DNA of 32,000 nucleotides from Mycolicibacterium smegmatis (GCF_001457595.1 NZ_LN831039.1:4050001-4082000); one strand, 5' to 3'. Counted from the stretch's first letter, positions 7,892 to 21,817 are shown. The notes: generated from the sequence alone by a model not told the origin. A program made the numbers and translations.

Positions 7892-8423
7892 CGCTCGGGT
7901 GTGAGCCGCAGTACCGGGATCTCACGGATTCCCTTGGTGTGCGCGCGGCATATGAGCTGAAGTTCGACGCGTACTGCTCAGCGAGCGCGTACAAGCGGTC
8001 GTGGTCGGAACCCTCGGTGGGCCGCGCGACGAACGTGCCGCCGCTGTTCGGGTTCCCCTCGGCGAACAACTGGCACCGCGGGTTCGCGATCAGGTTGTGG
8101 TACCACGCCGGGTGTTTGGTCTGCCCGTAATTGGAGGCGATCAGCACGACGTCGTCTCCGTCGGTGAAATACGCGAGGGTCACCTCCCGCTCTACACCGG
8201 ATTTCGCCCCCTTGGTGCGCAGCAGCACCAGCGGCATGACGCCCCGACCGAAGTGCACGCGCCCGCCGGTCAGGTGCATGAGCCGTTTGTCTGCGGGCGC
8301 CATGAGGTGGCGGTGCAGTGCCGAGCCCAGTTCCGTCGACAGGATCCAGCCCGCCGCTCGCCGCATCAGCGTCGGCTTACGCGTCGGATCCACGCGGGGT
8401 ATGCCGTTCAACAGGTCGGCCAT
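7836..8423 (-). CDS. Deazaflavin (F420H2)-dependent nitroreductase-family oxidoreductase; 3' end apparently frameshifted
   Basis: Core pattern GGRV...PLVLLRTKGAKSGVEREVTLAYFTDGDDVVLIASNYGQTKHPAWYHNLIANP is typical of the Ddn-like family. After ...SSYAAR the listed frame gives unrelated sequence and overlaps the DinB gene by 56 nt. Another frame reads TKGIREIPVLRLTPERQ* (stop at 7885-7887), which is the family-typical C-terminus. Confidence 0.8.
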   Translation of the reverse strand: MADLLNGIPRVDPTRKPTLMRRAAGWILSTELGSALHRHLMAPADKRLMHLTGGRVHFGRGVMPLVLLRTKGAKSGVEREVTLAYFTDGDDVVLIASNYGQTKHPAWYHNLIANPRCQLFAEGNPNSGGTFVARPTEGSDHDRLYALAEQYASNFSSYAARTPRESVRSRYCGSHPSVSERHAASAADRSRPRSW

Positions 8424-8485
8424 CGGCCGAATGCTACTCGGGTGGCACTGCCGCCAGCGCAGCTTTCACCCACGCGTCTGTGCGC

Positions 8486-8737
8486 TCACGCAAGCTGCAT
8501 CTGCTCGGTGCCGTGGGCAGCAGCCCACGCGACATTGGCGTGAGCCCAGCCCGCCGAAGCATCGGTCATGGCAAGGGTTTCGCTGACCTCGACGACCGTG
8601 CGCGGCGCAACCGCATAGCCGCCGAAGCGGCGCGGCGTGAGCATCCGGAAGAGGCCTGCCTGCGTCAGCGCGTCGATCACCTCATCGGGGCGACGTCGAT
8701 TGATGTCCCCGGCATGACGAGCCAACAGCGGCTGCAA
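8486..8737 (-). pseudogene. N-terminal fragment of an acyl-CoA dehydrogenase-fold / flavin monooxygenase gene
   Basis: 83 aa: ...INRRRPDEVIDALTQAGLFRMLTPRRFGGYAVAPRTVVEVSETLAMTDASAGW... This matches only the first ~80 residues of ~390-aa ACAD-type proteins. Only 62 nt separate its stop from the next gene, so the remainder is absent. Confidence 0.6.
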
Positions 8738-8781
8738 TGCCCTTGCCCTGCGACCAACTCGCCGCGGGTCACCGTGTCCCG

Positions 8782-9345
8782 TCAGAAGGCGACGCTCGCA
8801 CCGCCGTCGACCACGAAGTTGTGGCCGTTGACCATGCCTGCGCCCTCACCCGCAAGGTAGAGCACCGTCGAGGTGACGTCATCAAAGGTGGCCAAGCGGC
8901 GAGTGGGAATCCGCTCGATCACCTGCGCCCTCGCCGCGTCAGGCCACGTGGCCCGCGACATCGGTGTGTCGACGAGTGTCGGGGACGCGCAGTTCACCGT
9001 GACACCGTGCGGGCCCCATTCTGCGGCCAGAACACGGGACATCCCGAGGATGCCGGCCTTGGCCGCCGAGTAGGCAACGTGCCCGCCGATGCCCTGAATG
9101 GCGTTCTGGGATGCGATGTTGACGACTCTCCCCCATCCACGATCGACCATCCCGCGCCCGAATTCCCTGGTACACAGGAAAACTCCACGCAGGTTGGTGG
9201 CCATCGTCGTATCCCAGTCGGTGGTGGTGTATTCCGTAGCCGGCGCGAGCAGAGCAACCGCGGCGTTGTTGACCAACACATCCACCGAACCCAGTTCGGC
9301 GTCGATCTTCCGCGCGCCGTCGGAGATCGACGGCTCCGACGACAC
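8782..9345 (-). pseudogene. Short-chain dehydrogenase/reductase lacking its N-terminal Rossmann segment
   Basis: 187 aa. It begins just before the LVNNAAV motif and contains YSAAK and the C-terminal GxxFVVDGG. The TGxxxGxG segment (about 60 aa) is missing. The frame is closed by a TGA at 9373-9375, and the opposite-strand hydrolase gene starts at 9392. Confidence 0.65.
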
Positions 9346-9391
9346 GTACCCCTCGACGAATAATCGCGCCCGTCACATCGTTGGGATCGAT

Positions 9392-10540
9392 GTGAACGTC
9401 TCCGTCCAAGGGCATTGCGACGCCCGATTCGACAAAGTCGCCGAGGCGCTGGGCCAGGCGATCGAGAGCGGCGACGAGGTCGGGGCCGCCATCGCCGTCG
9501 ACATCGACGGTGAACTCGTCGTCGACATCTGGGGTGGGTACGCCGACGCTGCCGGCACCCGGCCGTGGCGCGCGGACACCATCGTCAACGTGTGGTCCTC
9601 GACGAAGACCGTGACCGCGCTGGCCGGCCTCATGCTGATCGATCGCGGACTGATCGAACCCACGACGCCGGTCGCGCAGGTGTGGCCGGAGTTCGCCGCG
9701 AACGGCAAAGAGTCCGTGGAGTTTCGGCACCTGCTCAGCCACTCGTCGGGGTTGTCCGGCTGGGAGCGGATCGACCGCATCGAGGATCTCTACGACTGGG
9801 ATTTGTCGACGGCCAGGCTGGCCGCTCAGGCGCCGTGGTGGGAACCAGGATCGGCGTCGGGATACCACGCGATGACCTTCGGCCACCTCGTCGGCGAGGT
9901 GGTGCGACGCGTCACGGGTCGCACCCTCAAGCAGTTCGTCGCCGACGAGATCGCCGCACCGCTGAACGCCGACTTCCAGATCGGCGCACGGCCGCAGGAC
10001 GCGGAGCGCATCGCCGAGGTCGTCCCGGCCGACAACCCGATGGAGGGGCTTCCACCGGCGGAAACCTGGACCGAGCAGATGGTGAAAACCTTCGGCGGTT
10101 TCTTCCCCGATCCGGCGGCCGCCAACACCGACGCGTGGCGCGCGGCCGACTTCGGCGCGGTCAACGGGCACACTACTGCACGCGCGCTCGCGCGCATCCT
10201 GTCGTCGATCTCGTTGGGTGGCACGGTCGACGGAGTGCGCCTGCTGCGTCCCGAGACCGTGGAGAAGGTGTTCGAGGCGCAGATCGAGGGCCCTGACCTC
10301 GTCATCGCACGCCATCCGGTGAAGTGGGGCCTCGGATTCGGGTTACCGGAACCCACCACCCTTCCGCACATCCCGGACGGCAAGATCTGCCACTGGGGCG
10401 GATGGGGCGGTTCGTGGGAGACCATGAACCCCGACAAACGAGCCACCGTCGCCTACGTGATGAACAAGATGGGGTCGGGGCTGCTGGGTAGTGACCGTAC
10501 CGAACGCTATTTCACGCTCATCTACGACGCGTTACGCTGA
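9392..10540 (+). CDS. Serine hydrolase, beta-lactamase/esterase (class C-related) family
   Basis: SxxK motif in VWSSTKTVTALAGLMLIDRG; N-terminal VQGHCDARFDKVAEA typical of EstB-like esterases; YHAMTFGHLVGEVVRRVTG; C-terminal HWGGWGGS. Start placed at GTG 9392; the ORF-track start at 9098 lies inside the SDR fragment. Confidence 0.8.
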   Translation: MNVSVQGHCDARFDKVAEALGQAIESGDEVGAAIAVDIDGELVVDIWGGYADAAGTRPWRADTIVNVWSSTKTVTALAGLMLIDRGLIEPTTPVAQVWPEFAANGKESVEFRHLLSHSSGLSGWERIDRIEDLYDWDLSTARLAAQAPWWEPGSASGYHAMTFGHLVGEVVRRVTGRTLKQFVADEIAAPLNADFQIGARPQDAERIAEVVPADNPMEGLPPAETWTEQMVKTFGGFFPDPAAANTDAWRAADFGAVNGHTTARALARILSSISLGGTVDGVRLLRPETVEKVFEAQIEGPDLVIARHPVKWGLGFGLPEPTTLPHIPDGKICHWGGWGGSWETMNPDKRATVAYVMNKMGSGLLGSDRTERYFTLIYDALR

Positions 10541-11184
10541 TCAGCCGGCAAATCTCGTCGAAATCGACTGCTCGGGAACCTGATCCAGTTTCTCCGCGAC
10601 CAAATTCAGCTTGGCTTTCATTCCGCTCGACCGCGCCGGCCCCGAGACGGCAGCGACGTTTTCGGCGACCACAGGACTGGCGCTCGCGGCCGCCACAGCC
10701 GCGCCCGCCTGCCTGTGTCACTCCCGGCCTACCGGGGCGCGACTGCCGCCCCAAAGTTCATCAGCCGTTGCATCTGCGCCGGACCGTGCTCGCGACGTGA
10801 CTTTTGGAACAAAATCCAGGCTCCGACTGCCATCCTCGCCCACCGCGTATTCGGTGTAGAGAGTCTGGTCGAGCAGTTCGGACAGGTGCACAGTCCGCAC
10901 CGACGATTCGAGCGTGAGATGCGGCGGCATATTGTCGCTGCCCGCACAGTACACATCGCACCCATGCCACAGGATCAACCGGCGCCCATCGGTCACCGCC
11001 ACCTCTTGCCACAACGAGGTTCCCCAGTCGTATTCGATCGTGTTGTCACTGAGCACGAACGACGTGGCCGCATCAAGGTCGACAACACGTGCCAGGGCTT
11101 CGAGCGCGATGTCGGCATCGCGTGGCCGATCAGGACCGCATCCCGAAGGTGCTCATAGCGGGCCCAGTCGAATTTGTCAGACAT
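10541..11184 (-). pseudogene. Disrupted hypothetical gene (one frameshift plus one in-frame TGA)
   Basis: There are three collinear coding-like pieces. (1) ATG 11184, MSDKFDWARYEHLRDAVLIGH... (2) After a frame change, ...DADIALEALARVVDLDAATSFVLSDNTIEYDWGTSLWQEVAVTDGRRLILWHGCDVYCAGSDNMPPHLTLE..., running to the TGA at 10718-10720. (3) The same frame then stays open for 58 more GC3-rich codons to the TGA at 10541-10543. Total length is 644 nt, not a multiple of 3. Confidence 0.35.
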
Positions 11185-11279
11185 GGGTCGCCATCAGCTT
11201 CCCGAACTGAAGGAGCCGCTCTCGACGGCGGCCGCTTCGCTTTCAAACACGTATGCTCGGCGCGGCTCAACGGCCGAAG

Positions 11280-11897
11280 TCAACTACCCAGCGGCCAGTT
11301 GACGGTAAAACCATGCCTAAGAACGAGTTCGGTCAGGACATCGAGGCGCTCAGCGAGCGGCCACAAGCGTATTCGGAACTGCTGGTGGGCGAAGAACGCG
11401 TAGTTGGCGGACTGTTGCGGAGTGGTGCGCGACCGGTAGACGATCGCGTCGAGGTCGGTCCACCAGCCGCGCGCGGCTTCGGCAAGACGTTGACAGGTGC
11501 CCCACACGGCGTCGTGTTGGCCGGTGCTGATCTGGTCGTCGACGTCGAGGGCGTCGAGGTTGCGCTCGGTGCGCAGGTCGAGTACGCGCATCGGGCGCCT
11601 GGTGACCAGCTCGCTCAGATAATGCCCAGCGTGGTCGGCGGGGATGACGAGCCCGGTGGCCCGGTAGCGCTCACGAAACGCCCCGACGAGATCCGCACCG
11701 GCATAACGGGTGCGGAAGGCCCCTGACGGCGGGTCGAAGCGGTGACGCGCTTCGGGGAAGCCATGCCAGTCCCACTCGTCGGGCGCGGCAGCTTCGACCC
11801 GCCACATCGTGGTGCCCGGCTGTACCGTTCGGCTCCGCAGCCCGCGGGGCCGGGTTGCGGGCAGCGGGTTGTGATAGCCGGGGAGGAGGTCAGGCAC
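11280..11897 (-). CDS. RES-domain toxin (MbcT/ParT-like NAD+-targeting family)
   Basis: R/E/S signature regions: ARHRFDPPSGAFRTRYAG, LVGAFRE, AIVYRSRTT. GTG at 11897 overlaps the antitoxin stop by 8 nt (GTGCCTGA). Product is about 205 aa. Confidence 0.8.
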   Translation of the reverse strand: MPDLLPGYHNPLPATRPRGLRSRTVQPGTTMWRVEAAAPDEWDWHGFPEARHRFDPPSGAFRTRYAGADLVGAFRERYRATGLVIPADHAGHYLSELVTRRPMRVLDLRTERNLDALDVDDQISTGQHDAVWGTCQRLAEAARGWWTDLDAIVYRSRTTPQQSANYAFFAHQQFRIRLWPLAERLDVLTELVLRHGFTVNWPLGS

Positions 11898-12405
11898 CGA
11901 GCGCGGTGAGGACTCGCCAAGCCGGCGCGGCGGTCGCCGCGTGATCGAGCGCCTCCACGATTGAGGCACCGTCCAGGTCGTCCCGTTGCAACCGCATGAT
12001 GCGGTCCGCTGCGACGGCGTCATCGGTGAAGTTCGCCAGCAGCTCGAGGATGCGCGGCAGGTCGGCGCGGAGCCGTCCGCCGTCGAACTGCCACGCCGGG
12101 AACCAGGTCTTGTTACCCACCGCGGCGCCGATCAGCCGTTTGCGCGTGCGGAGCCGATGCACTGCCTGCGGTGTCGCGTATCCGAGTCGTTCTTGCACAT
12201 CGGCGGTCGACAGCGCGCCGTCGATGAACTCCTCGATCAGAGCAGTCCGGCGCTGGTCGTTGAGGGCGCGCGCGGCCGAGCGTTCCAAGGTGCCCTGCGG
12301 GCCCGTCGGTGCGTCTCGCAGGGCGTCGAGGACCCGCACAAAACGCGCGTCGCGACGGGCCCGGGCCTCGATGTCTCGGACCAGCGGGGTTACGGCTGCG
12401 GTCAT
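11890..12405 (-). CDS. Xre-type antitoxin with C-terminal MbcA/ParS-like toxin-binding domain
   Basis: HTH segment STADVQERLGYATPQAVHRLRTRKRLIG, then WFPAWQF and a C-terminal ...ADRIMRLQRDDLDGASIVEAL... It sits immediately upstream of, and overlaps, the RES gene. Start at ATG 12405 (MTAAVTPLV). Confidence 0.75.
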   Translation of the reverse strand: MTAAVTPLVRDIEARARRDARFVRVLDALRDAPTGPQGTLERSAARALNDQRRTALIEEFIDGALSTADVQERLGYATPQAVHRLRTRKRLIGAAVGNKTWFPAWQFDGGRLRADLPRILELLANFTDDAVAADRIMRLQRDDLDGASIVEALDHAATAAPAWRVLTALGA

Positions 12406-12412
12406 GAGACCA

Positions 12413-12452
12413 ACAGTACCCGTCACGAGATCGAGTTGAAACAATTGAAACA
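12413..12452 (-). promoter_or_regulatory. Putative leaderless promoter of the Xre-RES operon, overlapped by a TTGAAACA direct repeat (candidate operator)
   Basis: On the minus strand: TTTCAA (-35, 12436-12441), 17 nt, TACTGT (-10, TANNNT type, 12413-12418), 7 nt, ATG (12405). Plus-strand TTGAAACA occurs twice (12436-12443 and 12445-12452) in an AT-rich patch. Confidence 0.4.
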
Positions 12453-12572
12453 CCGCGCGGCTCGGAGCTGGCACTGCACCCCAGGGCGTGTACAAGCTGA
12501 GGTGCGCCGACCTGTGGCCCCTCCCGCGAGTAAAGGTCGGCGGAGGTCACCACTTGTTGTGATCGGTAGCAC

Positions 12573-12602
12573 TTGTCATGGGTCATTATGGACAGACAGA
12601 TT
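12573..12602 (+). promoter_or_regulatory. Possible promoter of the seven-cistron operon
   Basis: TTGTCA (12573-12578), 18 nt, CAGATT (12597-12602), inside the only AT-rich patch of the 295-bp divergent intergenic region. Weak, pattern-based only. Confidence 0.2.
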
Positions 12603-12700
12603 GGGGTCGCACACCCCGCTGACGGCGAGTGAGCTGGTCGGAACAACGACAACCACGACCGCACCGTGGCGATTCCTCACCCGCCGGGAAGGGACGCGAC

Positions 12701-13531
12701 ATGCGCCAGCACCACCCGACGGGCTCGAAACCCACCGACTCGGCAACCATTTGGGCCACGCTCGCTACATCATCGCCGGCCCGTGTCGCCCGTCCTCGCG
12801 ATGTTCCCCGCCCGGAGTCGGTCGAGGAAGTCGCTGGGTGGGCGGGCAGCGAGGATCTGCGCCGCACTGAGCTGGTCTACGCGCCGGTGTTCTGGGTGCT
12901 CCTCCCCCTCGCCGCCATCGCGTTCCTTACCCATCAGGCGATCACGGACCCGACGGGTGCGGGGTGGAGCATCACGATCAACGGCGCGAGCCGCGACTCC
13001 TGGCCGGTCTGGGTGCCGTGGCTCGCGTGGATCGGCGTCAGTGTCTGGCTGCTCATCGCTGTCGGCGTCCTGCTCCTGCGCCTCAGCATCCTCCGAGATC
13101 TGCGGGACCAGAACGAGTGGATTTTCGAGCACGGCGTCGCGCACTCGATCCACCGTGCATCGGTGGATTACGAAGGCGAAGCGAGCTGGTCGACTTACAT
13201 CGCCCTCGACCACCGCCTCGATGACCGGCAGGCCGCACGGATCCACGCCGCGTTCGAGCAGTGGCTCTCGCAGGCAGGACTGCCGCCATCGGGCTCGAAG
13301 CCGATCGCCTCGACGACACTGTTCGGTGCGCAGGCGAAGGGCGGCTACTTCATCCTCCACCTGCCGGTATCCCAGACGGCCGGCGCCACCGCCGAACACG
13401 AGTGGATGCTCATCACCGAGCCACAGGCCGACGAGAGCGATGTGATCGTCACGCCGGTGCCTGTCCCGAAACGACTGCAGAAGATCCGCCGCAAGCTCCG
13501 TCGGAGAGCAGAACGCATGGGCACGTCATGA
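12701..13531 (+). CDS. Operon member P1: two-TM membrane protein with ~130-aa C-terminal domain; no family assigned
   Basis: ATG 12701 is preceded by GGGAAGGGA 6 nt upstream (ORF-track start 12629 is also possible). TM helices: VFWVLLPLAAIAFLTHQAI and VPWLAWIGVSVWLLIAVGVLLLRL. The tail is basic (KRLQKIRRKLRRRAERM). Its stop overlaps the next start (ATGA). Confidence 0.7.
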   Translation: MRQHHPTGSKPTDSATIWATLATSSPARVARPRDVPRPESVEEVAGWAGSEDLRRTELVYAPVFWVLLPLAAIAFLTHQAITDPTGAGWSITINGASRDSWPVWVPWLAWIGVSVWLLIAVGVLLLRLSILRDLRDQNEWIFEHGVAHSIHRASVDYEGEASWSTYIALDHRLDDRQAARIHAAFEQWLSQAGLPPSGSKPIASTTLFGAQAKGGYFILHLPVSQTAGATAEHEWMLITEPQADESDVIVTPVPVPKRLQKIRRKLRRRAERMGTS

Positions 13532-14148
13532 GTGGGTTCCGGATGATCACGCTGCGGAGCCTGACCGGCCCTGGTCCGCAGACCAGGGAATGGATGGCTC
13601 GGGCACGTACCCCGGAGACTCGCGCGGAGATTCGTCGGTGGTCACGGTGGGAGACGACGTCGGCGTGCCTTCTACTTGTCGGCGCGGCCTGTGGAGGCGC
13701 GACGCCGCTGAGCGGTCTGGGGCTCGCCGCCTGGCATGTCGTGCACGGCGACGCCCCGTGGCTGTGGTGGCTCCTCGGATCCCTCGCGATCACAGCGCTT
13801 TTCCTGATGGCCGGTTCGTGGCTGGGCTCCTACTCAAGCGACCGACGTTTGACGGTGCTCTATGCCGACGGACACGTCTCTATCGGGCGTCTCGACAAGG
13901 TCATCACCCAGCCGGGCGGCGGTGATGAGCAGACCAGCTACGACTTCGCCATCAGCGCAGAACTCTCCGATGGCGTCGTCCTGCACCGCGAGCTGCACTG
14001 GGGCGAGGACAGCAGCCTGCTCTACCCAGAGCGTTGGGTCCGCCGCACGATCCGGTTCCGCCACAACACCCTCGATCCGAATAACCTCGGGGATGTGCTG
14101 TTTGACGGCTGGGTGAGCGCGGACAACGGAGGCGCTCGTGACCGATGA
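13528..14148 (+). CDS. Operon member P2: TM hairpin plus beta-rich module (paralogue of P6)
   Basis: ATGA overlap at 13528-13531. Contains WMARARTPETRAEIRRW, two TM helices, and a module ending RTIRFRHNTLDPNNLGDVLFDGWV. Confidence 0.75.
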   Translation: MSGFRMITLRSLTGPGPQTREWMARARTPETRAEIRRWSRWETTSACLLLVGAACGGATPLSGLGLAAWHVVHGDAPWLWWLLGSLAITALFLMAGSWLGSYSSDRRLTVLYADGHVSIGRLDKVITQPGGGDEQTSYDFAISAELSDGVVLHRELHWGEDSSLLYPERWVRRTIRFRHNTLDPNNLGDVLFDGWVSADNGGARDR

Positions 14149-14521
14149 GTACGCAGAGTTCTGGGCCAGCCGGACGAACACATCACGGACCCTGGCACGG
14201 ATCCGCCTTCTATCAAGACTCGATGAGGCGAAGTTCGCAGACGGGCACTGTTCGGTCGGGGTGATCGACGCCGTCATGTCCAGAGAAGGCACTGACGGGC
14301 AACGTTTCACCACGACCCGCTACACGCTCACGGTGACGGCTGTACTCCCCGAAGCGACCACGATCCGCCGCCATATCGACTGGGGTGTCGGCGACTCGCG
14401 GGGTCGCGACAACACCTGGGCGGGGCGGCGGATCAGTTTCCGCCACAACTCCCGAGACCCGGACGACCTCGCCGACGAGCAGGCCGCCGGTCGGCCCGAC
14501 GGTGATGCGGAGCGATCATGA
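14138..14521 (+). CDS. Operon member P3: soluble beta-rich module only (paralogue of the N-terminal half of P7)
   Basis: GTG 14138 is preceded by ACGGAGG and overlaps the P2 end by 11 nt. Contains EAKFADGHCSVGVIDAV ... RRISFRHNSRDPDDL. No TM segment. Confidence 0.7.
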   Translation: MTDEYAEFWASRTNTSRTLARIRLLSRLDEAKFADGHCSVGVIDAVMSREGTDGQRFTTTRYTLTVTAVLPEATTIRRHIDWGVGDSRGRDNTWAGRRISFRHNSRDPDDLADEQAAGRPDGDAERS

Positions 14522-15162
14522 CCGGCAACGATCACAAGGAGCCGCTGCTCGTACGTACCGCAGAGAAGCTACTCGTCGGCTCGGGACCGCAGGCACCGTT
14601 CCTCGTCCGCCACGACTGGGCGATCCCGGCCATCGTGTTCGGCGGATGCGGCCTCTTCATGGTCCTAGCGCTGATCGCGAGTTTTCAGGGATGGGGCCCG
14701 GTGCTGATGTGGATCGTCATCGGGATCGGCGCGCTCTGCGTCGTACTGACGGTGCCCACGTTCGTCCAGATGTTCCGAGCAACCCGCGGTCCGCTGCCCG
14801 CGCTCGACCGGACCCCGCGAACAGCCAGGGTGGTCCTGCACGCAGACGACGCCGAGGGTGGGCAGACGATCCTCGTCGAATATCGCGATGCCGCAGGGGA
14901 AGGGCACGACGCGCAGCTCGCCGATGTCATCCACGAGTCTTGGGAAAAGCGGTTCTCTCCCGGCTCACGGTGGCAGGTCTACGCGTTCCGCGACCCCGAG
15001 CTCACCGACACTGTCGTGTTTCTCACCGAGGTCCACGACGATGTCTGGCGCGACGGGTGGAAGCTCGACGGGGTCCGCATCGGCGGCGAAGGCGGACCGG
15101 TCAAACCCGGCCCAGGATCCCCGTTCCTGCGTACAGGCTCGAAGTGGGAGTTCGCGTCATGA
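14518..15162 (+). CDS. Operon member P4: TM hairpin plus beta-rich module (paralogue of P5)
   Basis: ATGA overlap at 14518-14521. TM helices: WAIPAIVFGGCGLFMVLALIASF and VLMWIVIGIGALCVVLTVPTFV. Module: PLPALDRTPRTARV...ILVEYRDAAGEGHDAQL...WQVYAFRDPELTDTVVFLTEVHDDVWRDGW...GPGSPFL. Confidence 0.75.
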   Translation: MTGNDHKEPLLVRTAEKLLVGSGPQAPFLVRHDWAIPAIVFGGCGLFMVLALIASFQGWGPVLMWIVIGIGALCVVLTVPTFVQMFRATRGPLPALDRTPRTARVVLHADDAEGGQTILVEYRDAAGEGHDAQLADVIHESWEKRFSPGSRWQVYAFRDPELTDTVVFLTEVHDDVWRDGWKLDGVRIGGEGGPVKPGPGSPFLRTGSKWEFAS

Positions 15163-15781
15163 CCGCCACACCGCAGAGCCGCCAACCACAGCGGAAGCAG
15201 GGATCCGACGGTTCGATCTGGACCGACGGGGGAACCTGGTTCGGGCTGTTCCTTATCAGCTCGGTCCTGCTGGGCTGGGGCATCTTGTCCTTGCCGTTCG
15301 ACGGGGTCGTCCGCGGCGTGATGCTGTTCTTCGCCGTTATCGTGGCCGCGGTCGCCTGCGGCGTCGGGTGGCTCGAGACGATGTCGAACATGCCACTGCC
15401 TGCGCTGGACCACACCCCCCGCGTGGCACGTGTACGCGAGATCCGCGATGGGACCAACCCGACACCACAGCGGAAGCGGAGACGAAAAAGGTCATCGTCG
15501 ATTACGACGGAGCCGACGGGAAGACACACACAGCCTGGCTGGGCGATCTCATCAACGAGGCGTCGATCAACCGGTTCACTCCCAAGAGTCTGTGGCAGGT
15601 GTACGCCTTCGCCAACCCAGACCTCGCCGACACCATGGTCCTGCTCACCGAAAGGCATGACGACGTGTGGCGCGGCGGCTTCATGATCACGGGTCTGCAC
15701 GGCGATTTCGCATTCTCCGAAATTCGGCAGTCGGCACCAGGATCGCCGTTCCTCGATGGAAAGCGCAGGTTCGCCTCATGA
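15159..15781 (+). pseudogene. Operon member P5: paralogue of P4, reading frame broken once
   Basis: ATGA overlap at 15159-15162. The N-terminal part (two TM helices, MPLPALDHTPRVARV) is in one frame. The C-terminal part (TTAEAETKKVIVDYDGADGKTHTAWL...WQVYAFANPDLADTMVLLTERHDDVWRGGF...APGSPFLDGKRRFAS*) is in the -1 frame. The span is 623 nt, which is 2 mod 3. Confidence 0.65.
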
Positions 15782-16326
15782 ACCGCCGCACCACAGCGTG
15801 GATGGCCCTGGCGCGGACGCCCGAGACCCGGGCACGGATCCGCCGGTGGGCGTTACTCAAGCGCGTCTTCTTCGGGCTGGCCGGCCTGGGTTCGACGGCG
15901 TCGGTGACCATCATCGTCGTGGCGGCGATCCGCGAATTCCTCGGGGAGCCGGCCCCGTGGTGGGTCTTCCTCGCAGCCCTCGCTGTACTCGTGGTTTCGA
16001 TCCTCCCGTGGTGCCTCGCCTCGTTAAGGCTCGACGTCGCTCGGTATGCCGACGGCGAGGAAACTGTCGGCACCATCACCAAGATCGTCGTCGATGAGGA
16101 CACGGATCCAGAGGCGTTGCCCGCATACGACATCACGATCGCAGCCAGGCTTCCCGCTGGGGGCATCCATCGCACCTGCCGAGTGTCTGAGCGCACGGCG
16201 CCGAAGCCTGGACAGAGGGTCCGGTTCCGCCACAACACCGGTGATCCGGACGACCTTGAGGATGTGCTGTTCCTCGGATTCGTCGATGCGCCGAACACCG
16301 CACAGCGAGGAACGATGAATCCATGA
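15778..16326 (+). CDS. Operon member P6: TM hairpin plus beta-rich module (paralogue of P2)
   Basis: ATGA overlap at 15778-15781. Contains WMALARTPETRARIRRW, two TM helices, and QRVRFRHNTGDPDDLEDVLFLGFV. Confidence 0.75.
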   Translation: MNRRTTAWMALARTPETRARIRRWALLKRVFFGLAGLGSTASVTIIVVAAIREFLGEPAPWWVFLAALAVLVVSILPWCLASLRLDVARYADGEETVGTITKIVVDEDTDPEALPAYDITIAARLPAGGIHRTCRVSERTAPKPGQRVRFRHNTGDPDDLEDVLFLGFVDAPNTAQRGTMNP

Positions 16327-17051
16327 CCGAACGACACGCCGAGAAAAAGCCGCCCCTGTTGCGGCGGGTGTGGGAGGCGATCATCGGTGAGTTCACTCCG
16401 CCGTCGACGCCGCGCCCGACCCCGAGTGAGGCGGAGTTCGCCGAGGGATATCTTGCGGTCGGAATGATCAATGACGCGATCGAGGACGGCCCTGGTGGCG
16501 ACGTGCAGGGGCCTGACAAGCTCGTCATCAGCGCCGACATCCCCGGGCACGGAACCATCTACCGAACGAGGTCATGCCCGCTGTCGATGCCCGGCAGCGG
16601 CCTAAAACTCATCGGACACAGTATTCGATTCCGCCACACCACTTTCGACCCGGACTACAGCAACGACATCCAGGTGACACGGTGGCCACCCGAGGTCAGG
16701 AAGGCCCTGGAGCCGGTCCGCTACGAGGGCCCGGGTGCTCTGCGTGCGCGCGCGTGGGGCTTGCTCGCCGGTTGCAACTTCCTCGTCATGTGGGCCGGGA
16801 TCGCGCTCACACCGATCCTGCTGTGCGGCATCATCTTCGGCGGCGACATGTTCACCGACCTCCCCGCGTGGTTCCACCCCGGCGTCGCGCTCGCATCGAG
16901 CGTCGGCGCGGTACCGCTGGGGTTGTTTCTGGTCGCCGTCTGCAACGTGCACAGAGATGCCGCACTCTCCCGCACCAGATCCCGGAGGAGCCCGGGACAT
17001 GAAACGCGCAGTTCGTCGAGCGGGATCGCCGACGATGAGCCTTGCGGCTAG
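16323..17051 (+). CDS. Operon member P7: inverted architecture, N-terminal beta-rich module then C-terminal TM hairpin
   Basis: ATGA overlap at 16323-16326. Contains EAEFAEGYLAVGMINDAI ... HSIRFRHTTFDPDYSNDI, then TM helices WGLLAGCNFLVMWAGIALTPILLCGIIFGG and VALASSVGAVPLGLFLVAVC. Confidence 0.7.
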   Translation: MTERHAEKKPPLLRRVWEAIIGEFTPPSTPRPTPSEAEFAEGYLAVGMINDAIEDGPGGDVQGPDKLVISADIPGHGTIYRTRSCPLSMPGSGLKLIGHSIRFRHTTFDPDYSNDIQVTRWPPEVRKALEPVRYEGPGALRARAWGLLAGCNFLVMWAGIALTPILLCGIIFGGDMFTDLPAWFHPGVALASSVGAVPLGLFLVAVCNVHRDAALSRTRSRRSPGHETRSSSSGIADDEPCG

Positions 17052-17851
17052 AGCAGCTGCTCGGGCAGCGGGCCGCTGACATCGACGAACGGCCCCATCA
17101 CCCGTTCGAAGACCCCGGTGTCGACTTCGTCACCGGCGAGGTCGCGCATCAGGGCGGCGACGCCGAGCGTCCAGAACGGTCGCAGGTCGATGCCGGGCCC
17201 CTGCGGAGCAACGTGGTCGAGGTGCAAGACGAAGGCCCCAACTTGTTTGCGCAGATCGTCGGGAATCCTCGGCCCCCAGGAGTACAGCCGTTCCTCTGCT
17301 CGTTCCCAACCGTTGCCGTCGCTGCGGATGCCGTCCAGGACAGCGCGCGCTTCAAGCGTGCTCAACAGGCCAAGCCGGAAACAGACGGCGTCCCAGGCGG
17401 GATGGGCCGCTGATACGGTCGGTTCCATCAGGTTCGCGAGTTCGGCCGCGGAGGGCGGCGGGTACCGCGCCGCCAGGGCGCTCGTGCGCAGATTCCGGGC
17501 GTCCCGGATCGCCTGCAGATCGGCAGGCACGAGCGGCAAATCGGGGCCGCACGGCGGTTCGAGCAGGAGCACACGTCCGGGGTCGGCCCTGTCAACAATC
17601 ACTGGGACGTGCCAGCGCATGACCAGCCCCGTGAAGCTGCCGGGATCGGTGCCGCTACGCAGCTCCGCTCGGTATGAGGCTCCACCCGGCGGCTGAACCT
17701 CAACCACCGCCGAGCAGCGATCGGATTCGAGCACCAGAGCCCGCGCGTACAGGGGCTCGACGAGGTCTGGTGCGCCGACATCTGCGGGCATTGGGGCGCC
17801 GATTTCAGGCCCGGACGAGGCCATCCCACGCAGTCGATCCATCCAGCCCAC
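17048..17851 (-). CDS. Hypothetical protein: N-terminal beta-rich module related to the operon family plus a helical C-terminal domain
   Basis: 267 aa with no TM segment. The N-terminal part ARALVLESDRCSAVVEVQPPGGASYRAELRSG...WHVPVIVDRADPGRVLL has the same strand pattern as the operon modules. Its stop overlaps the P7 stop (CTAG at 17048-17051). Start is uncertain: GTG 17851, ATG 17842 or ATG 17824. Confidence 0.6.
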   Translation of the reverse strand: MGWMDRLRGMASSGPEIGAPMPADVGAPDLVEPLYARALVLESDRCSAVVEVQPPGGASYRAELRSGTDPGSFTGLVMRWHVPVIVDRADPGRVLLLEPPCGPDLPLVPADLQAIRDARNLRTSALAARYPPPSAAELANLMEPTVSAAHPAWDAVCFRLGLLSTLEARAVLDGIRSDGNGWERAEERLYSWGPRIPDDLRKQVGAFVLHLDHVAPQGPGIDLRPFWTLGVAALMRDLAGDEVDTGVFERVMGPFVDVSGPLPEQLL

Positions 17852-18045
17852 ACGGCGACCTTAGCCGAGGGCGCCGCCGGGGTTCGCGAGCCGACCGACG
17901 AGCGCGTGCCCTTGACGCCCGCGAACCACGCGACGCCACCGGCGCATTGGTGTCCAGCCCTTATGTCATAAAACAACTCGCCCCGCAGCTGTATGTGCTC
18001 ACCGAGATCATCGACCCCCAACCGCACAACGAGTCCGGTAGCCCG

Positions 18046-18975
18046 TCAAGACCCTCCAGAAACCCGCACCGTGCCCTCAGGCGGCCTGGCCGCCACGATG
18101 AAGTCAGAAAACCGTTGTACCGCCTTGGTTTTACGTCGCTCACGCGACCAAGCCAGCACAGCGTGCCGAACTGCCGAAGGTTCCTCGAACGGCAGCACGA
18201 CGACCCCGTCGGTACCGGTCAACCGCACCGCGAGCTCACTGAGCACGCCGACGCCCAATCCAGAGCGCACCATCGACACCAGCGTGTGCGGGCTCGCGAC
18301 GCGCCTGCCGGCACCCACCTGCACATCGGCCGCGGCGAACAACGCGGCGATCTCCGGGGAAACACCTCGCGCGCCCGCACCACTACCAGGCGTGACGACA
18401 TCCTCGACTGCCAACTCGTCCAACGTCACCGACGACATCCGAGCCAGCCGATGAGTCGGCGGCACCAACAAGCGCAACGGCTCATCCCACAGCGGAACCC
18501 ACTGCAGTTCAGGGATGTTCGCGACATACGCCTGCGGCAAGATCGCCAGATCGGCCTCGTGGCGGTGCAGCATCTCGGGCAGCGTGGCCGTCGGCCCCTC
18601 CAGGACCTGCACCTCGATGTTGCGTTCGATCCTGCTGAACCGGTCGATCAACCGCGATGCGAAGGCGCCGGCCGCACTCGCCATGCACGCCAACCGTACG
18701 GTTCCGTAGGTCGTCCCGCGTAGCGCCGCCATCTCGGCGCGTGCGCTGTCGAGCGTCGCCAGCACGTCCTTCGCCCGCCCGAGAAAGATCTCGCCGGCCA
18801 CCGTCAGGCGTACGGGCCGCACGCTGCGGTCCACCAGCACGACGCCGAGTTCGTGCTCCAACTTCGCGACATGCTCGCTGACCCTCGACTGCACGCGACC
18901 GAGATCCTGCGCCGCGGCCAGAAACGCACCGCGTTCGGCGACCGCGACGAACGACGTCAGCCAGTCCACGTGCAC
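18046..18975 (-). CDS. LysR-family transcriptional regulator
   Basis: N-terminal wHTH (LTSFVAVAERGAFLAAAQDLGRVQSRVSEHVAKLEHELGVVLVDRSVRPVRLTVAG) and a typical ~300-aa length with a substrate-binding domain. It is divergent from the next operon. Confidence 0.9.
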   Translation of the reverse strand: MHVDWLTSFVAVAERGAFLAAAQDLGRVQSRVSEHVAKLEHELGVVLVDRSVRPVRLTVAGEIFLGRAKDVLATLDSARAEMAALRGTTYGTVRLACMASAAGAFASRLIDRFSRIERNIEVQVLEGPTATLPEMLHRHEADLAILPQAYVANIPELQWVPLWDEPLRLLVPPTHRLARMSSVTLDELAVEDVVTPGSGAGARGVSPEIAALFAAADVQVGAGRRVASPHTLVSMVRSGLGVGVLSELAVRLTGTDGVVVLPFEEPSAVRHAVLAWSRERRKTKAVQRFSDFIVAARPPEGTVRVSGGS

Positions 18976-18986
18976 CGCTCCACACT

Positions 18987-19001
18987 ATCCGAAAAACAGA
19001 T
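18987..19001. promoter_or_regulatory. LTTR-type box ATC-N9-GAT (T-N11-A)
   Basis: atccgaaaaacagat lies 12 nt upstream of the LysR start, in the 115-bp divergent region. TATCCG recurs at 18986 and 19008, and the palindrome ATCCGGAT is at 19009-19016. Confidence 0.4.
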
Positions 19002-19090
19002 TGGAATTATCCGGATCGGCGTGGTTCATCCGGTCCGGCCCAGCCATACGCTCCCCAACGACAGTGACCCGACTCACAATGAGGAGAATC

Positions 19091-19876
19091 ATGACCGACC
19101 GAATCGATGGGACCACCCATGACCGAACCCGCTACCGCAACGCGATGGGACCGCGCGGCGTCATCGGGATCATGACTCCCGGCCCGAACGTGGTCGTCGA
19201 GAACGAGATGATGGACATGCGCCCGCCCGGCGTCATCAACGCAGTCGACCGCTATTACGTCCCCAACCAGTCGATCCGCGCCGACGACGACTGGACGATC
19301 ATCATGCGCCACGTCGCCGCCAACCTCGACGACTCGGTGCGCCGACTCAACGAGGCGCTCATCGACCATCTTGTCCTGGGGATGTCGTCGCAGAGCTTCA
19401 TGGGCGGAGTCGACGGCAGCTTCGCCCTGCTCGACCATCTGCGCGAAGCGTCCGGGGTCGACGTGTCAATGGGTGCGCAGGCGTCCGAAGCCGCACTCAA
19501 GGAAGTCGGCGCACGGCGACTCGCGCTCGTCACGCCCTATTACCCCGTGATCGAGAAGAATGCGGTGAGCTACTTCGAAGGCCGCGGCTTCGAGGTCGTC
19601 CACGTCGAAGGCCTCAAGTGCCGCAGCATCATCGAGGTCGCCTCCCAGGGAGAGGACCGTCTGCGCGACGCGGTCCGCATCGCCGACGAGCACCGTCCTG
19701 ACGCGATCATCCAGCTCGGCACCAATCTGCGTTTCGGGGCGCTGGCCCCGCGACTCGAGCAGGAGCTCGGCAAACCCGTCTGGGCCGTCGGCACCGTCAT
19801 CTACTGGCACGCACTACGCGCCATGGGGATCGACGACCAATACGAGGGCTTCGGCACACTGCTCGAAAAGCACTGA
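19091..19876 (+). CDS. Asp/Glu racemase-superfamily protein (arylmalonate decarboxylase / maleate isomerase-like)
   Basis: ATG 19091 is preceded by GAGGAGAA. GIMTPGPNVVVENE, LVLGMSSQSFMGG, RRLALVTPYYP and AIIQLGTNLRF parallel the conserved blocks of AMDase/maleate isomerase as I recall them. Confidence 0.65.
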   Translation: MTDRIDGTTHDRTRYRNAMGPRGVIGIMTPGPNVVVENEMMDMRPPGVINAVDRYYVPNQSIRADDDWTIIMRHVAANLDDSVRRLNEALIDHLVLGMSSQSFMGGVDGSFALLDHLREASGVDVSMGAQASEAALKEVGARRLALVTPYYPVIEKNAVSYFEGRGFEVVHVEGLKCRSIIEVASQGEDRLRDAVRIADEHRPDAIIQLGTNLRFGALAPRLEQELGKPVWAVGTVIYWHALRAMGIDDQYEGFGTLLEKH

Positions 19877-19889
19877 GGTCGAACCGCAC

Positions 19890-21194
19890 ATGTCCGTCCA
19901 ACTGCTCTCCATCGCCGTGCTGGTGGCGGTGTTCATCATCTCCACGGTGTTCAACGTGCACATGGGTGCACTGGCGTTCGTCGCCACTTTTGTCGTCGGG
20001 ATCGGTTTGACCGACCTGTCTGAGAAGGAGATCATCGCCGGGTTCCCTGCCGGCCTGTTCGTGATCCTCGTCGGCGTGACGTATCTCTTCGCCATCGCCA
20101 AGGCCAACGGCGCCATCGACTGGCTCGTCGACTCCGCGGTCAACCTGGTGCGCGGACGTGTGTGGGCATTTCCGTGGATCATGTTCGTGCTCGCGGCCGG
20201 CCTCGCCGGGGTGGGCGCCGTTCCTCCGGCGGCGGTGGCGATCATCGCGCCGACGGCCATGCGGATCGCCCATCGCTACGGCATCAGCCCGTTGCTCATG
20301 GGCCTCATGGTCGCCAACGGCGTGTCCGCAGGCGAGTTCTCGCCGATCGGCCTGTTCGGGATCATCGTCAACGACGTCGCCGTATCCAACGGCGTCACGT
20401 CGTCGCCAATCCTGTTGTTCGCGAGTTGTTTCGCGGTCAACGCCATCATGTGCTACGCGCTGTGTGTCGTGATCAACCGACGCGCACGCCGTCACGACAA
20501 GGCCGATGAGTCCCTCGAAACCGGTGGCCCCACTCCCCCACGCGGTGGGACCGGGGTGCGAGTGGTGGACGCCGATGTCGCCGTGGCTGTCCGACCGCCG
20601 ATGACCCGCTCGGTAGCCACGACCCTTGCCGGGCTCCTGGTGATGGTGGGCATTGTGGCGTGCACTGAACTCGACATCGGTTTTGTGGCAATGACTCTCG
20701 CGGTGATCCTCAGCATTCTGTCTCCGGAGGCGGCAAAGGAGGCATTGCCGAAGATCGCGTGGCCGTCGGTCTTCCTGATCGTCGGGATCGTCACCTACGT
20801 CGGTCTGCTGCAGGAACTCGGGACCGTCACCTACGTGTCCGACGCGGTGGCGCATCTGCAGTCGCCGCTGTTGATCGCCCTGCTCATCTGCGTCATCGGC
20901 GCGGTGGTCTCGGCGTTCGCCTCGACCACCGGAATCCTCGGCGCTCTGGTGCCGTTGGCGGTGCCGTTCCTGTTGTCGGGCGAGGTGTCATCGATTGCGA
21001 TGATCATCGCGCTGAGTCTGTCCTCGTCGATCGTCGACGCGTCACCGTTCTCGACGTCAGGAGCGCTGATAGCCGCCAACGCCGCCGAGGAAGACCGCGA
21101 CCGCGTCATGAGCCAGCTGCTGCGCTGGGGGATGTCGATGATCGTCGTCGCGCCGGTCGTATCCTGGGCCGTTTTCGTCCTGCCCGGTTGGTGA
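19890..21194 (+). CDS. Anion/dicarboxylate carrier, DASS/SLC13-type (MatC-like)
   Basis: 434 aa, strongly hydrophobic, in two halves separated by a hydrophilic loop (RRARRHDKADESLETGGPTPPRGG...). The N-terminus MSVQLLSIAVLVAVFIISTV...GALAF...AGFPAGLFVILVGVTYLFAIAKANGAIDWLV resembles MatC-type carriers (from memory). It starts 13 nt downstream of the preceding gene. Confidence 0.7.
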   Translation: MSVQLLSIAVLVAVFIISTVFNVHMGALAFVATFVVGIGLTDLSEKEIIAGFPAGLFVILVGVTYLFAIAKANGAIDWLVDSAVNLVRGRVWAFPWIMFVLAAGLAGVGAVPPAAVAIIAPTAMRIAHRYGISPLLMGLMVANGVSAGEFSPIGLFGIIVNDVAVSNGVTSSPILLFASCFAVNAIMCYALCVVINRRARRHDKADESLETGGPTPPRGGTGVRVVDADVAVAVRPPMTRSVATTLAGLLVMVGIVACTELDIGFVAMTLAVILSILSPEAAKEALPKIAWPSVFLIVGIVTYVGLLQELGTVTYVSDAVAHLQSPLLIALLICVIGAVVSAFASTTGILGALVPLAVPFLLSGEVSSIAMIIALSLSSSIVDASPFSTSGALIAANAAEEDRDRVMSQLLRWGMSMIVVAPVVSWAVFVLPGW

Positions 21195-21199
21195 CCCGA

Positions 21200-21241
21200 G
21201 TGCGATACGCGGCGCGAGGCCTCACGCGCCGCGTATCGCAC
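21200..21241 (+). terminator. Perfect 17-bp stem hairpin downstream of the carrier gene
   Basis: GTGCGATACGCGGCGCG (21200-21216), loop aggcctca, CGCGCCGCGTATCGCAC (21225-21241). It starts 6 nt after the TGA at 21192-21194. No U-tract. Confidence 0.65.
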
Positions 21242-21272
21242 TGCGGTGGCACCATGGGTGGGCGTGACGTCT

Positions 21273-21776
21273 ATGGACCGGGCGATGCCGCCCCTGAACG
21301 GTGATGAACGCACGACGTTGGTGGGCTGGCTGGACTTCTACCGCGCGACCCTGGCTGCCAAATGCGAAGGCCTCACCGATGAGCAGGTTCGCATCGCTTC
21401 GGTGGAACCGTCGGAGATCACGCTTCTGGGTTTGGTGCAGCATGCCGCAGAGGTGGAACGAAACTGGTTTCGGCGGGTGCTGACGGGCGAACAACTGCCC
21501 CCGATTTTCGGATCCACTCCCCATCCCGAGGGCCACGACAGTGGATTCGAGCTGTCACCGGAATCGTCCTACCGAGCGGCGATCACGATCTGGCAGGACG
21601 AGATCCGGCATGCGCCCGCCAATATCGCAGAGCGCGAACTCGATGACACCAGCCCGTTCATGCAGACCGAGGTGACCCTGCGGTGGATCGTCGTCCACAT
21701 GATCGCAGAATACGCGCGGCACTGTGGGCACGCCGACCTGATCCGTGAACGTATCGACGGGCGCACAGGCGTCTGA
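21273..21776 (+). CDS. DinB/DUF664-family protein (mycothiol-transferase-like bundle)
   Basis: GDERTTLVGWLDFYRATLAAKCEGLTDEQ...SEITLLGLVQHAAEVERNWF...TLRWIVVHMIAEYARHCGHADLIRERIDG is the characteristic DUF664 pattern. Start at ATG 21273 or 21285; the ORF-track GTG at 21246 abuts the hairpin. Confidence 0.8.
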   Translation: MDRAMPPLNGDERTTLVGWLDFYRATLAAKCEGLTDEQVRIASVEPSEITLLGLVQHAAEVERNWFRRVLTGEQLPPIFGSTPHPEGHDSGFELSPESSYRAAITIWQDEIRHAPANIAERELDDTSPFMQTEVTLRWIVVHMIAEYARHCGHADLIRERIDGRTGV

Positions 21777-21817
21777 TTCACGCTGCTTCGGCAACGAGGG
21801 TCGTGCCCGGCAGGCCG

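Follow-up and report, generated by a model that had tools for sequence, protein, structure and literature searches.

Coupled genes of Mycolicibacterium smegmatis encode small membrane-hairpin proteins with modelled OB-like barrels and no recognized family

A stretch of 32,000 nucleotides from Mycolicibacterium smegmatis (GCF_001457595.1, NZ_LN831039.1:4050001-4082000; the window, whose numbering is used throughout) contains between positions 12701 and 17851 a compact block of eight genes, here called P1 to P8. The block is real coding DNA that specifies seven translationally coupled products, six of them intact and one frameshifted, together with the convergent gene P8. Six of the eight products carry a transmembrane (TM) hairpin, and one small module, present in four of the eight, is modelled as an oligonucleotide/oligosaccharide-binding (OB)-like five-strand barrel. 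It is plausible that the products form a hetero-oligomeric assembly and, more tentatively, we propose that this membrane assembly has a role in conflict or defence. The genes are arranged as follows.

12701..13531, plus strand: P1, 276 aa; start and open reading frame (ORF) match the Mycobacteroides (M.) abscessus orthologue (73% identical)
13528..14148, plus strand: P2, 206 aa; N-terminal motif, TM hairpin and module A
14138..14521, plus strand: P3, 127 aa; N-terminal motif and module A, hairpin lost
14518..15162, plus strand: P4, 214 aa; TM hairpin and module B
15159..15781, plus strand: P5, 623 nt; pseudogene of a P4 paralogue
15778..16326, plus strand: P6, 182 aa; P2 paralogue
16323..17051, plus strand: P7, 242 aa; module A first, TM hairpin second
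17048..17851, minus strand: P8, 267 aa, soluble; convergent with P7

These coordinates reproduce those of a first-pass annotation made from the sequence alone, as do the five ATGA start/stop overlaps (13528, 14518, 15159, 15778 and 16323) and the 11-nt overlap at 14138 that begins with GTG. The G+C content at third codon positions (GC3) is 0.76-0.86 in each cistron and follows the order GC3 > GC1 > GC2, as in high-G+C coding DNA; a purine-rich, Shine-Dalgarno-like stretch lies 5' of most cistron starts, and the start codons are consistent with those of orthologues from other genera. The same annotation had described a gap-free operon of seven cistrons. The overlaps hold, but P5 is a pseudogene: one base is missing between 15448 and 15449, where the window reads CGC GA- TGG and intact homologues read CGT GAA TGG, so that the hairpin is encoded in frame 0 and module B in frame +2. 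The intact homologues, identified by frame analysis and alignment, are those of a Streptomyces (locus L034) and of M. abscessus (gene M7). The identical lesion is found in six other assemblies of the species (L001-L006), which excludes a sequencing error. It follows that the motif strings once quoted as common to P4 and P5, all of which are present, were drawn in the case of P5 from two different frames.

The stop codons of P7 and P8 share the palindrome CTAG (17048-17051), which lies within an 18-nt imperfect palindrome (window 17044-17069). This arrangement excludes room for an intergenic terminator, and the two transcripts should therefore overlap antisense at their 3' ends. The same convergent stop layout is seen in M. 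smegmatis strain mc2155. Terminator-like sites in the window were all intragenic and were not used, and scans of the window yielded no sigma-70 consensus promoter, no Rfam match and no tRNA.

Paralogy among the products was judged by all-against-all BLASTP and by profile-profile comparison, which together assign them to four apparently unrelated sequence families: module A (P2, P3, P6 and P7), module B (P4 and P5), P1 and P8. The pairs P2/P6 and P4/P5 match at E values of 3e-25 and 5e-30, and the motif strings reported for the former pair are present as quoted. The P7 family is linked to the P2 family with a profile-profile probability of 99.3%, while P3 matches P2 and P6 at E ~1e-11 and P7 at E 1e-6. 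The first-pass annotation had arranged the products as three pairs in the duplicated order B-C-D / D'-B'-C', with P3 as the specific partner of the N-terminal half of P7 and P8 as an eighth relative. This scheme gives way to the four families: module A is common to P2, P3, P6 and P7, with P3 closer to P2 and P6, and P8 has no detectable sequence or profile similarity to any other product. The C-terminal domain of P1, already thought to be different, is not detectably related to module A, nor is module B, in profile-profile comparison. An origin of P1, P8 or module B from module A by divergence was thus rejected, as neither BLASTP nor profile-profile comparison revealed any similarity.

At the DNA level, the 19-nt identical block noted previously at 14052-14070 and 16221-16239 was found again, and proved to be the core of a 52-nt block (D1) present once each in P2, P3, P6 and P7, its four copies being 63-85% identical. 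A second, shorter repeat (D4) falls in the N-terminal-motif codons of P3 and P6.

14051..14102, plus strand: D1, 52-nt reference copy, encoding (I/V)RFRHN..DP..L; further copies at 14433-14484, 16220-16271 and 16624-16675
14188..14207 and 15825-15844, plus strand: D4, 20-nt repeat, copies 95% identical

Hydropathy analysis places the hairpins in P1, P2, P4, P5, P6 and P7 and finds none in P3 or P8. The inter-helix loops carry 0-1 lysine or arginine residues and the flanks are rich in them, a distribution that, by the positive-inside rule, points to an N-in/C-in topology and agrees with the earlier prediction that the modules are cytoplasmic. P2 comprises an invariant basic N-terminal motif (WMARARTPETRAEIRRW), a hairpin at residues 46-64/79-97 and a predicted cytoplasmic module A with the string RFRHNTLDP. 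For P2, AlphaFold2 modelling from 41 homologues (predicted local distance difference test score, pLDDT, 85) gave helices at the N terminus, then a long helical hairpin and a barrel of five strands ordered b1-b2-b3-short helix-b4-b5. The Foldseek neighbours of this model in PDB and BFVD were OB folds only (uS12, Teb1, S1, a ligase OB domain and tRNA_anti-like), all with weak scores. Module A is thus OB-like as modelled, with five strands.

The remaining products vary this plan. P6 has the N-terminal motif, a hairpin at 30-48/63-81 and module A, and its orthologues are 83% (M. abscessus), 63% (Jiangella) and 54% (Streptomyces) identical. In P7 the barrel precedes the hairpin (module A at about residues 36-125, hairpin at 153-171/188-206), confirming the inverted domain order described for it. 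P3 had been taken for the module alone; it indeed has no hydrophobic segment, but it retains a P2-type N-terminal motif (EFWASRTNTSRTLARIRLL vs EWMARARTPETRAEIRRW) joined straight to the barrel. Its M. abscessus counterpart, M3, is full-length with the hairpin retained, which together with the shared motif marks P3 as a hairpin-deleted P2-type protein; TM-less relatives of the P3 type are found elsewhere too. P4 has a hairpin at 35-53/61-79 followed by module B (PLPALDRTPR...WQVYAF...HDDVWR...PGSPFL), and its orthologues in other genera are 43-63% identical. P1 consists of a conserved N-terminal motif, a hairpin at 58-76/108-126 and a predicted cytoplasmic domain of ~130 aa that forms a family of its own. 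The AlphaFold2 model of P8 (pLDDT 76) shows a five-strand OB-like barrel at 33-96 and an eight-helix domain at 110-259, with weak OB-fold matches as its only Foldseek neighbours, so that P8 would be akin to the other products in fold class and not in sequence. The modules and barrels are net acidic, while the P1 C-terminal tail and the P2-family N-terminal motif are strongly basic.

That N-terminal motif, QT..WMARARTPETRA.IRRWSR.E, occupies P2 residues 18-42 (window 13579-13653) and is invariant in the P2-family alignment. Its only PDB profile match was the helix-turn-helix (HTH) part of lambda excisionase (Xis), and three of the 41 P2-family members matched Pfam Exc, in both cases non-significantly (E 0.1-0.6); the Xis match, at E 0.56, was rejected. 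The motif may be a degenerate HTH-like basic element or an artefact of composition.

None of P1 to P8 matched anything at threshold in Pfam, NCBIfam, PADLOC or PHROGs, and neither single-protein nor profile searches identified a PDB relative by sequence. This bears out, for all products and these four collections, the first impression that no catalytic, nucleotide-binding, lipobox or secretion family is represented. When the search of Pfam was extended to 41 P2-like, 24 P8-like, P4-like and P1-like relatives, the matches were confined to sub-threshold ones to DUF4131, holin-X and DUF3592.

The resemblance to DUF3592 (PF12158; gathering score 25.3 bits) that had been suggested for the module has weak support. 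The general trait is found here, as the hydropathy hairpins and the five-strand P2 model provide a hydrophobic anchor flanking a small beta-rich domain that, as in DUF3592, ends in a V-x-[FY]-x-x-x-x-DP-like strand, and the function of DUF3592 is likewise undescribed. No window protein comes near the model: there was no match even at E<=1 for P1-P4, P6-P8, the 41 P2-like or the 24 P8-like proteins. The links are one P4-like relative (15.8 bits, sub-threshold) and M9 of M. abscessus (105 aa), which at 26.2 bits passes the gathering score as a true DUF3592 protein; M9 is a coupled array gene and recurs in L021 and L044. M9 gave no signal against the module A, module B, P1, P7 or P8 profiles with hhalign.

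DUF4131 (PF13567; gathering score 31.6 bits), the N-terminal region of ComEC, was detected below threshold in 16 of the 41 P2-family members (best E 1e-4) and at 12-13 bits at best in window proteins; these partial matches cover the TM hairpin, chiefly its second helix, and the first strands. As in ComEC, TM helices are followed by an OB fold. Unlike ComEC, the array proteins have no Competence or metallo-beta-lactamase domains, and their barrel is predicted to be cytoplasmic whereas the ComEC OB domain is thought to face outward. Holin-X (PF07332) was weakly matched by 11 of the 41 members, below the gathering score (best E 0.025), and by no window protein. Short NfeD proteins of the YuaF/YbbJ type likewise join a membrane anchor to a C-terminal OB-fold domain, which in NfeD serves protein-protein contacts; NfeD (PF01957) itself matched neither the window proteins nor the 41 P2-like proteins, and no SPFH/flotillin (Band_7) gene was present in the neighbourhoods inspected. 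Cap15-type effectors of cyclic-oligonucleotide-based antiphage signalling (CBASS) and other 2TM abortive-infection effectors also have two N-terminal TM helices and a small C-terminal barrel, a possible sensing domain, and are accessory, horizontally spread genes. The arrays differ from them in having no PADLOC match or cyclase, in their five-strand OB-like topology and in their many paralogues; no CD-NTase/cyclase or other signal-generating enzyme is present in the window or in annotated related loci.

The families are rare. Among 5.8 billion proteins the P2 family is represented by 56 homologue clusters, all unannotated; P7 has 56 clusters (46-75% identity across genera) and P8 has 26 (53-78% identity), all labelled 'hypothetical'. 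An exhaustive profile search of 1.84 billion proteins with module A returned 96 representatives, all named sources of which are Actinomycetota, and fusion to a known domain was found in none of the 96; long multi-stretch profile matches to PKD and LRR proteins were rejected as spurious. A scan of 185,579 species, one genome each, gave 27 loci, again all in Actinomycetota, in the genera Streptomyces, Saccharomonospora, Nocardia, Nocardioides, Gordonia, Microbacterium, Jiangella, Nocardiopsis and Leucobacter. Mycolicibacterium proteins are 65-78% identical to homologues in Jiangella, Okibacterium, Streptomyces and Tsukamurella, which points to horizontal exchange. Plasmids contributed two weak matches, both typed as non-mobilizable and in an uninformative context. 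Literature searches for MSMEG_3916-3921 and UniProt A0QZ70 found only an unrelated mention and an operon table. The general kind of protein, a TM-anchored barrel of the OB or DUF3592-like type, is known, and it is the families and their organization in arrays that appear to be undescribed.

The arrays are mosaics of 1 to 15 genes, the smallest being a single P2-like gene, with P2-P7 pairs and P1-P2-P7 sets between it and the large arrays. Within this variation certain features recur. In seven other loci from six genera a P1-like gene is present, always immediately 5' of P2 and overlapping it by 4 nt; P7 is mostly the last gene of the array, and the order P2...P7 is recurrent; P4/P5-like genes occur in about nine loci; and P8 is convergent with array genes in L021, L029, L036, L044 and M. 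abscessus and stands alone in L043 and L045. Other genes that recur encode a ~300-aa 2TM protein (L007, L021, L034), a lipoprotein (L031, L036), a TM protein whose C-terminal module is beta-rich (L009, L036), a 4-TM protein, the DUF3592 protein and a TM protein with a Cys-rich extracytoplasmic domain. Gene fragments and frameshifts are frequent. Some products are single-chain fusions: a P2-like protein extended by another module A that lacks TM helices (as if P2 and P3 were one chain), a P2-like protein with module B, and two complete P2-like units in tandem. These fusions, with the conserved coupling and order, support the view that the modules associate physically at the cytoplasmic side of the membrane.

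The largest version, of 15 genes, is that of M. abscessus subsp. massiliense (L046/L047). Eleven tightly packed, mostly overlapping genes on the plus strand include orthologues of P1 (73% identical), P2 (58%), P7 (40%), P4 (43%), an intact P5 (66%) and P6 (83%) and the full-length P3-like gene; a convergent operon encodes two P2-like proteins, a P1-like protein and P8 (77%). The unequal identities of these orthologues are a further sign of mosaicism. A tRNA-Lys/Glu/Asp/Phe cluster ends 400 bp before the array (site at 8271-8777 and 9171-18752). On the other side of these tRNAs, next to tRNA-Lys, L047 has a prophage similar to prophiGD34-2 or prophiT50-1; deposited phage records do not include the array.

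In other genomes, PIN-domain (VapC-like) genes flank the arrays of Nocardia carnea and Streptomyces halstedii (L015 7066-7482 and 11726-12139; L016 10357-10770), and an IS3-type transposase orfA lies near that of Gordonia liuliyuniae (L020 10897-11223). In Streptomyces sp. NPDC050560 (L025 13224-14770), a 145-aa helical ORF followed by a gene for a 367-aa DUF6973 protein lies 2.5 kb downstream of the array, and by eye this resembles a toxin gene pair. It was rejected as a recurrent toxin partner, since DUF6973 was found at one locus only.

Variation within M. smegmatis shows the array in a reduced form. Relative to the window, strain mc2155 lacks 666 bp inside P1, in frame, leaving a remnant of 54 codons, and 1610 bp from about codon 24 of P3 to about codon 14 of P6 (breakpoints 14207/15817 by blastn, overlapping by 27 bp). 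The longer deletion has its junction in the 20-nt repeat D4 and leaves a 183-aa P3/P6 hybrid in which VTDEYAEFWASR is joined to P6 from TPETRARIRRW onward. Because P1 is full-length and the genes are separate in other genera, mc2155 represents the derived state. Both deletions, the P5 frameshift and the variable flanks are in keeping with the accessory, decaying character ascribed to the locus. The surviving frames bear signs of selection: the ratio of nonsynonymous to synonymous substitution rates (dN/dS) between window and mc2155 is 0.33 for P2 and 0.20 for P6, with P2, P6, P7 and P8 all within 0.20-0.33, and each paralogue has conserved orthologues in other genera. Taking P8 as MSMEG_3921, we infer that the reduced version is MSMEG_3918-3921, with P2, the hybrid and P7 as 3918, 3919 and 3920. 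In a published exponential-phase transcriptome, MSMEG_3919-3920 is among the high-confidence operons whose genes are transcribed together (PMC6448022, Suppl. Table S6).

The flanks of the block were compared with those of mc2155 (L042) over window positions 10652-11221 and 17882-21804. Divergent from P1 are two overlapping minus-strand ORFs of ~205-247 aa (11280-12023) and ~171-201 aa (11890-12495), which the first-pass annotation had named a RES-Xre module. That label is withdrawn, as no RES (PF08808), Xre or other match was found in Pfam, NCBIfam, PADLOC, PHROGs or PDB sequences, and the pair is toxin-antitoxin (TA)-like solely in its overlapping two-gene layout. It is conserved in mc2155 (dN/dS 0.23 and 0.37), where it corresponds to MSMEG_3916-3915, listed as another operon (PMC6448022, Suppl. 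Table S6). Between this pair and a beta-lactamase-fold gene lies a 112-aa ORF (10718-11056, minus strand) that is annotated as a gene in related assemblies and has no family match; in the corresponding interval mc2155 has ~2.3 kb extra, with a zinc alcohol dehydrogenase gene and small ORFs. Downstream of the block the window carries LysR-Amdase-CitMHS genes (18046-21194), and mc2155 and other strains carry condensation-domain and Lactamase_B genes.

Our working model is that the hairpins would pack into a hetero-oligomeric assembly in the inner membrane, with the cytoplasmic barrels binding partners or ligands; the acidic barrels might, for example, dock onto basic elements of adjacent subunits, either their invariant N-terminal helices or their C-terminal tails. 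The assembly would serve a conflict function, defending the cell against phage, mobile DNA or toxins: the barrels may sense a cue, the holin-like hairpins may alter membrane integrity or entry, and the multiple paralogues may provide breadth of specificity. The rarity of the genes, their patchy horizontal spread, mosaicism, range of copy number, decay and dispensability fit a conflict role better than core physiology, and so do the tRNA/prophage hot spot of M. abscessus and the PIN, IS (insertion sequence) or TA-like neighbours in some genomes. The weak holin-X-like matches of the hairpins were also counted in its favour. Several observations weigh against the proposal. No product matches a PADLOC or PHROG model, no homologue occurs in 50,697 phage records, and in no array is there an enzyme, an NTPase, a nuclease or a partner that would generate a signal. 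The annotated neighbours are for the most part ordinary genes of metabolism or housekeeping, so that a defence-island context is not clear. About one third of the loci hold a solitary P2-like gene, which means that a hetero-complex is not obligatory; the net acidic modules are unlike nucleic-acid-binding OB folds; and the array genes of mc2155 are transcribed in unstressed exponential growth. The oligomer, the docking and the functional steps are, moreover, what we infer from these comparisons. For these reasons the conflict role is put forward tentatively. A bolder form of it, which we regard as doubtful, would make the arrays a previously unrecognized membrane-acting conflict system, so far seen only in Actinomycetota, in which each paralogue is a self-contained sensor-effector with an invader-sensing barrel and a holin-like hairpin, the paralogues form mixed oligomers, and the P1-like and P8-like proteins act as regulators.

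A conflict role could also take a different shape, with the block as an orphan immunity array in which each paralogue neutralizes a different membrane-targeting toxin of a competitor, for instance one exported by an ESX/type VII secretion system (T7SS) or a bacteriocin-like one. The comparison is with tandem EsaG (DUF600) or TsaI immunity genes, or with acquired interbacterial-defence islands; like the tandem immunity genes, the arrays are runs of diverged paralogues that vary in number, spread horizontally as mosaics and include orphan copies and pseudogenes. LXG/T7SS toxin loci include genes for DUF3592 membrane proteins (PMC12482557), a DUF3592 protein occurs in three arrays, and the DUF6973 gene and helical ORF of the Streptomyces locus could be cited in the same sense. 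That gene is restricted to one locus, however, and in the window and nearly all loci no toxin, WXG100/LXG or secretion gene adjoins the array. Distinct, unrelated families in a conserved coupled order suit subunits better than interchangeable cassettes, and domain fusions between the families exist. An immunity array is thus an unlikely explanation.

The architecture of a TM anchor with a small barrel would suit an envelope or membrane-homeostasis module, in which the hairpin-barrel proteins assist membrane enzymes, transporters or stress systems as scaffolds or cofactors, by analogy with NfeD and its SPFH proteins, with PspM, or with the DUF3592 protein ML2271. There are weak matches to PspM/Rv2743c in TM regions, some arrays include the lipoprotein, the 4-TM protein or the TM protein with a Cys-rich extracytoplasmic domain, and the genes are expressed in normal growth. 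ML2271 is itself predicted to bind MptB as a cofactor (bioRxiv 10.64898/2026.07.15.738315). A general physiological role sits poorly with the extreme rarity, patchiness, horizontal transfer and easy within-species loss of the genes; no conserved partner enzyme or SPFH gene lies nearby, and all the family matches are far below threshold. We therefore do not expect this account to hold, though we would give it some weight.

It is decidedly improbable that the block is left over from a mobile element with a role in DNA traffic (superinfection exclusion, a block to DNA entry or Spd-like spread as in Streptomyces), in which membrane-tethered OB barrels and a basic HTH-like N-terminus handle incoming DNA. 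Actinomycete spd operons typically contain overlapping genes whose products are small membrane proteins, and the OB-like fold, the weak DUF4131 matches, the sole though non-significant lead from lambda Xis and the tRNA/prophage-adjacent site in M. abscessus point the same way. The cited similarities are all below significance and the modules are acidic; the arrays contain no integrase, relaxase, TraB/FtsK or replication gene, and the families are absent from phage records and meet plasmids only in the two weak, non-mobilizable matches. Hardly credible is functionless DNA decaying by drift in this strain, for although the P5 frameshift is fixed in the lineage, the P3 hairpin is lost and mc2155 tolerates the loss of P1 and P3-P5, six intact frames keep coding GC3 and low dN/dS (0.2-0.33), the array is transcribed in mc2155, and most M. 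abscessus counterparts are 58-83% identical, with proteins from other genera and from metagenomes reaching 78%.

Whether or not the proposed conflict assembly is borne out, families missing from Pfam, NCBIfam, PADLOC and PHROGs represent uncharted protein space in a model organism, and an expanded 15-gene version is carried by a clinical pathogen, M. abscessus subsp. massiliense. The natural deletion variants and the frameshift provide ready-made, isogenic-like comparisons between the reduced array of mc2155, the seven cistrons of other M. smegmatis strains and the M. abscessus genes. Should the products have no measurable effect, the block would still be a clean example of how a paralogue array grows, recombines and decays; should they serve the envelope as cofactors, the roles now emerging for DUF3592-like membrane proteins would be extended. 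If protection against phage or toxins proves true, the array would bear on the host range of mycobacteriophages and on phage therapy of M. abscessus.

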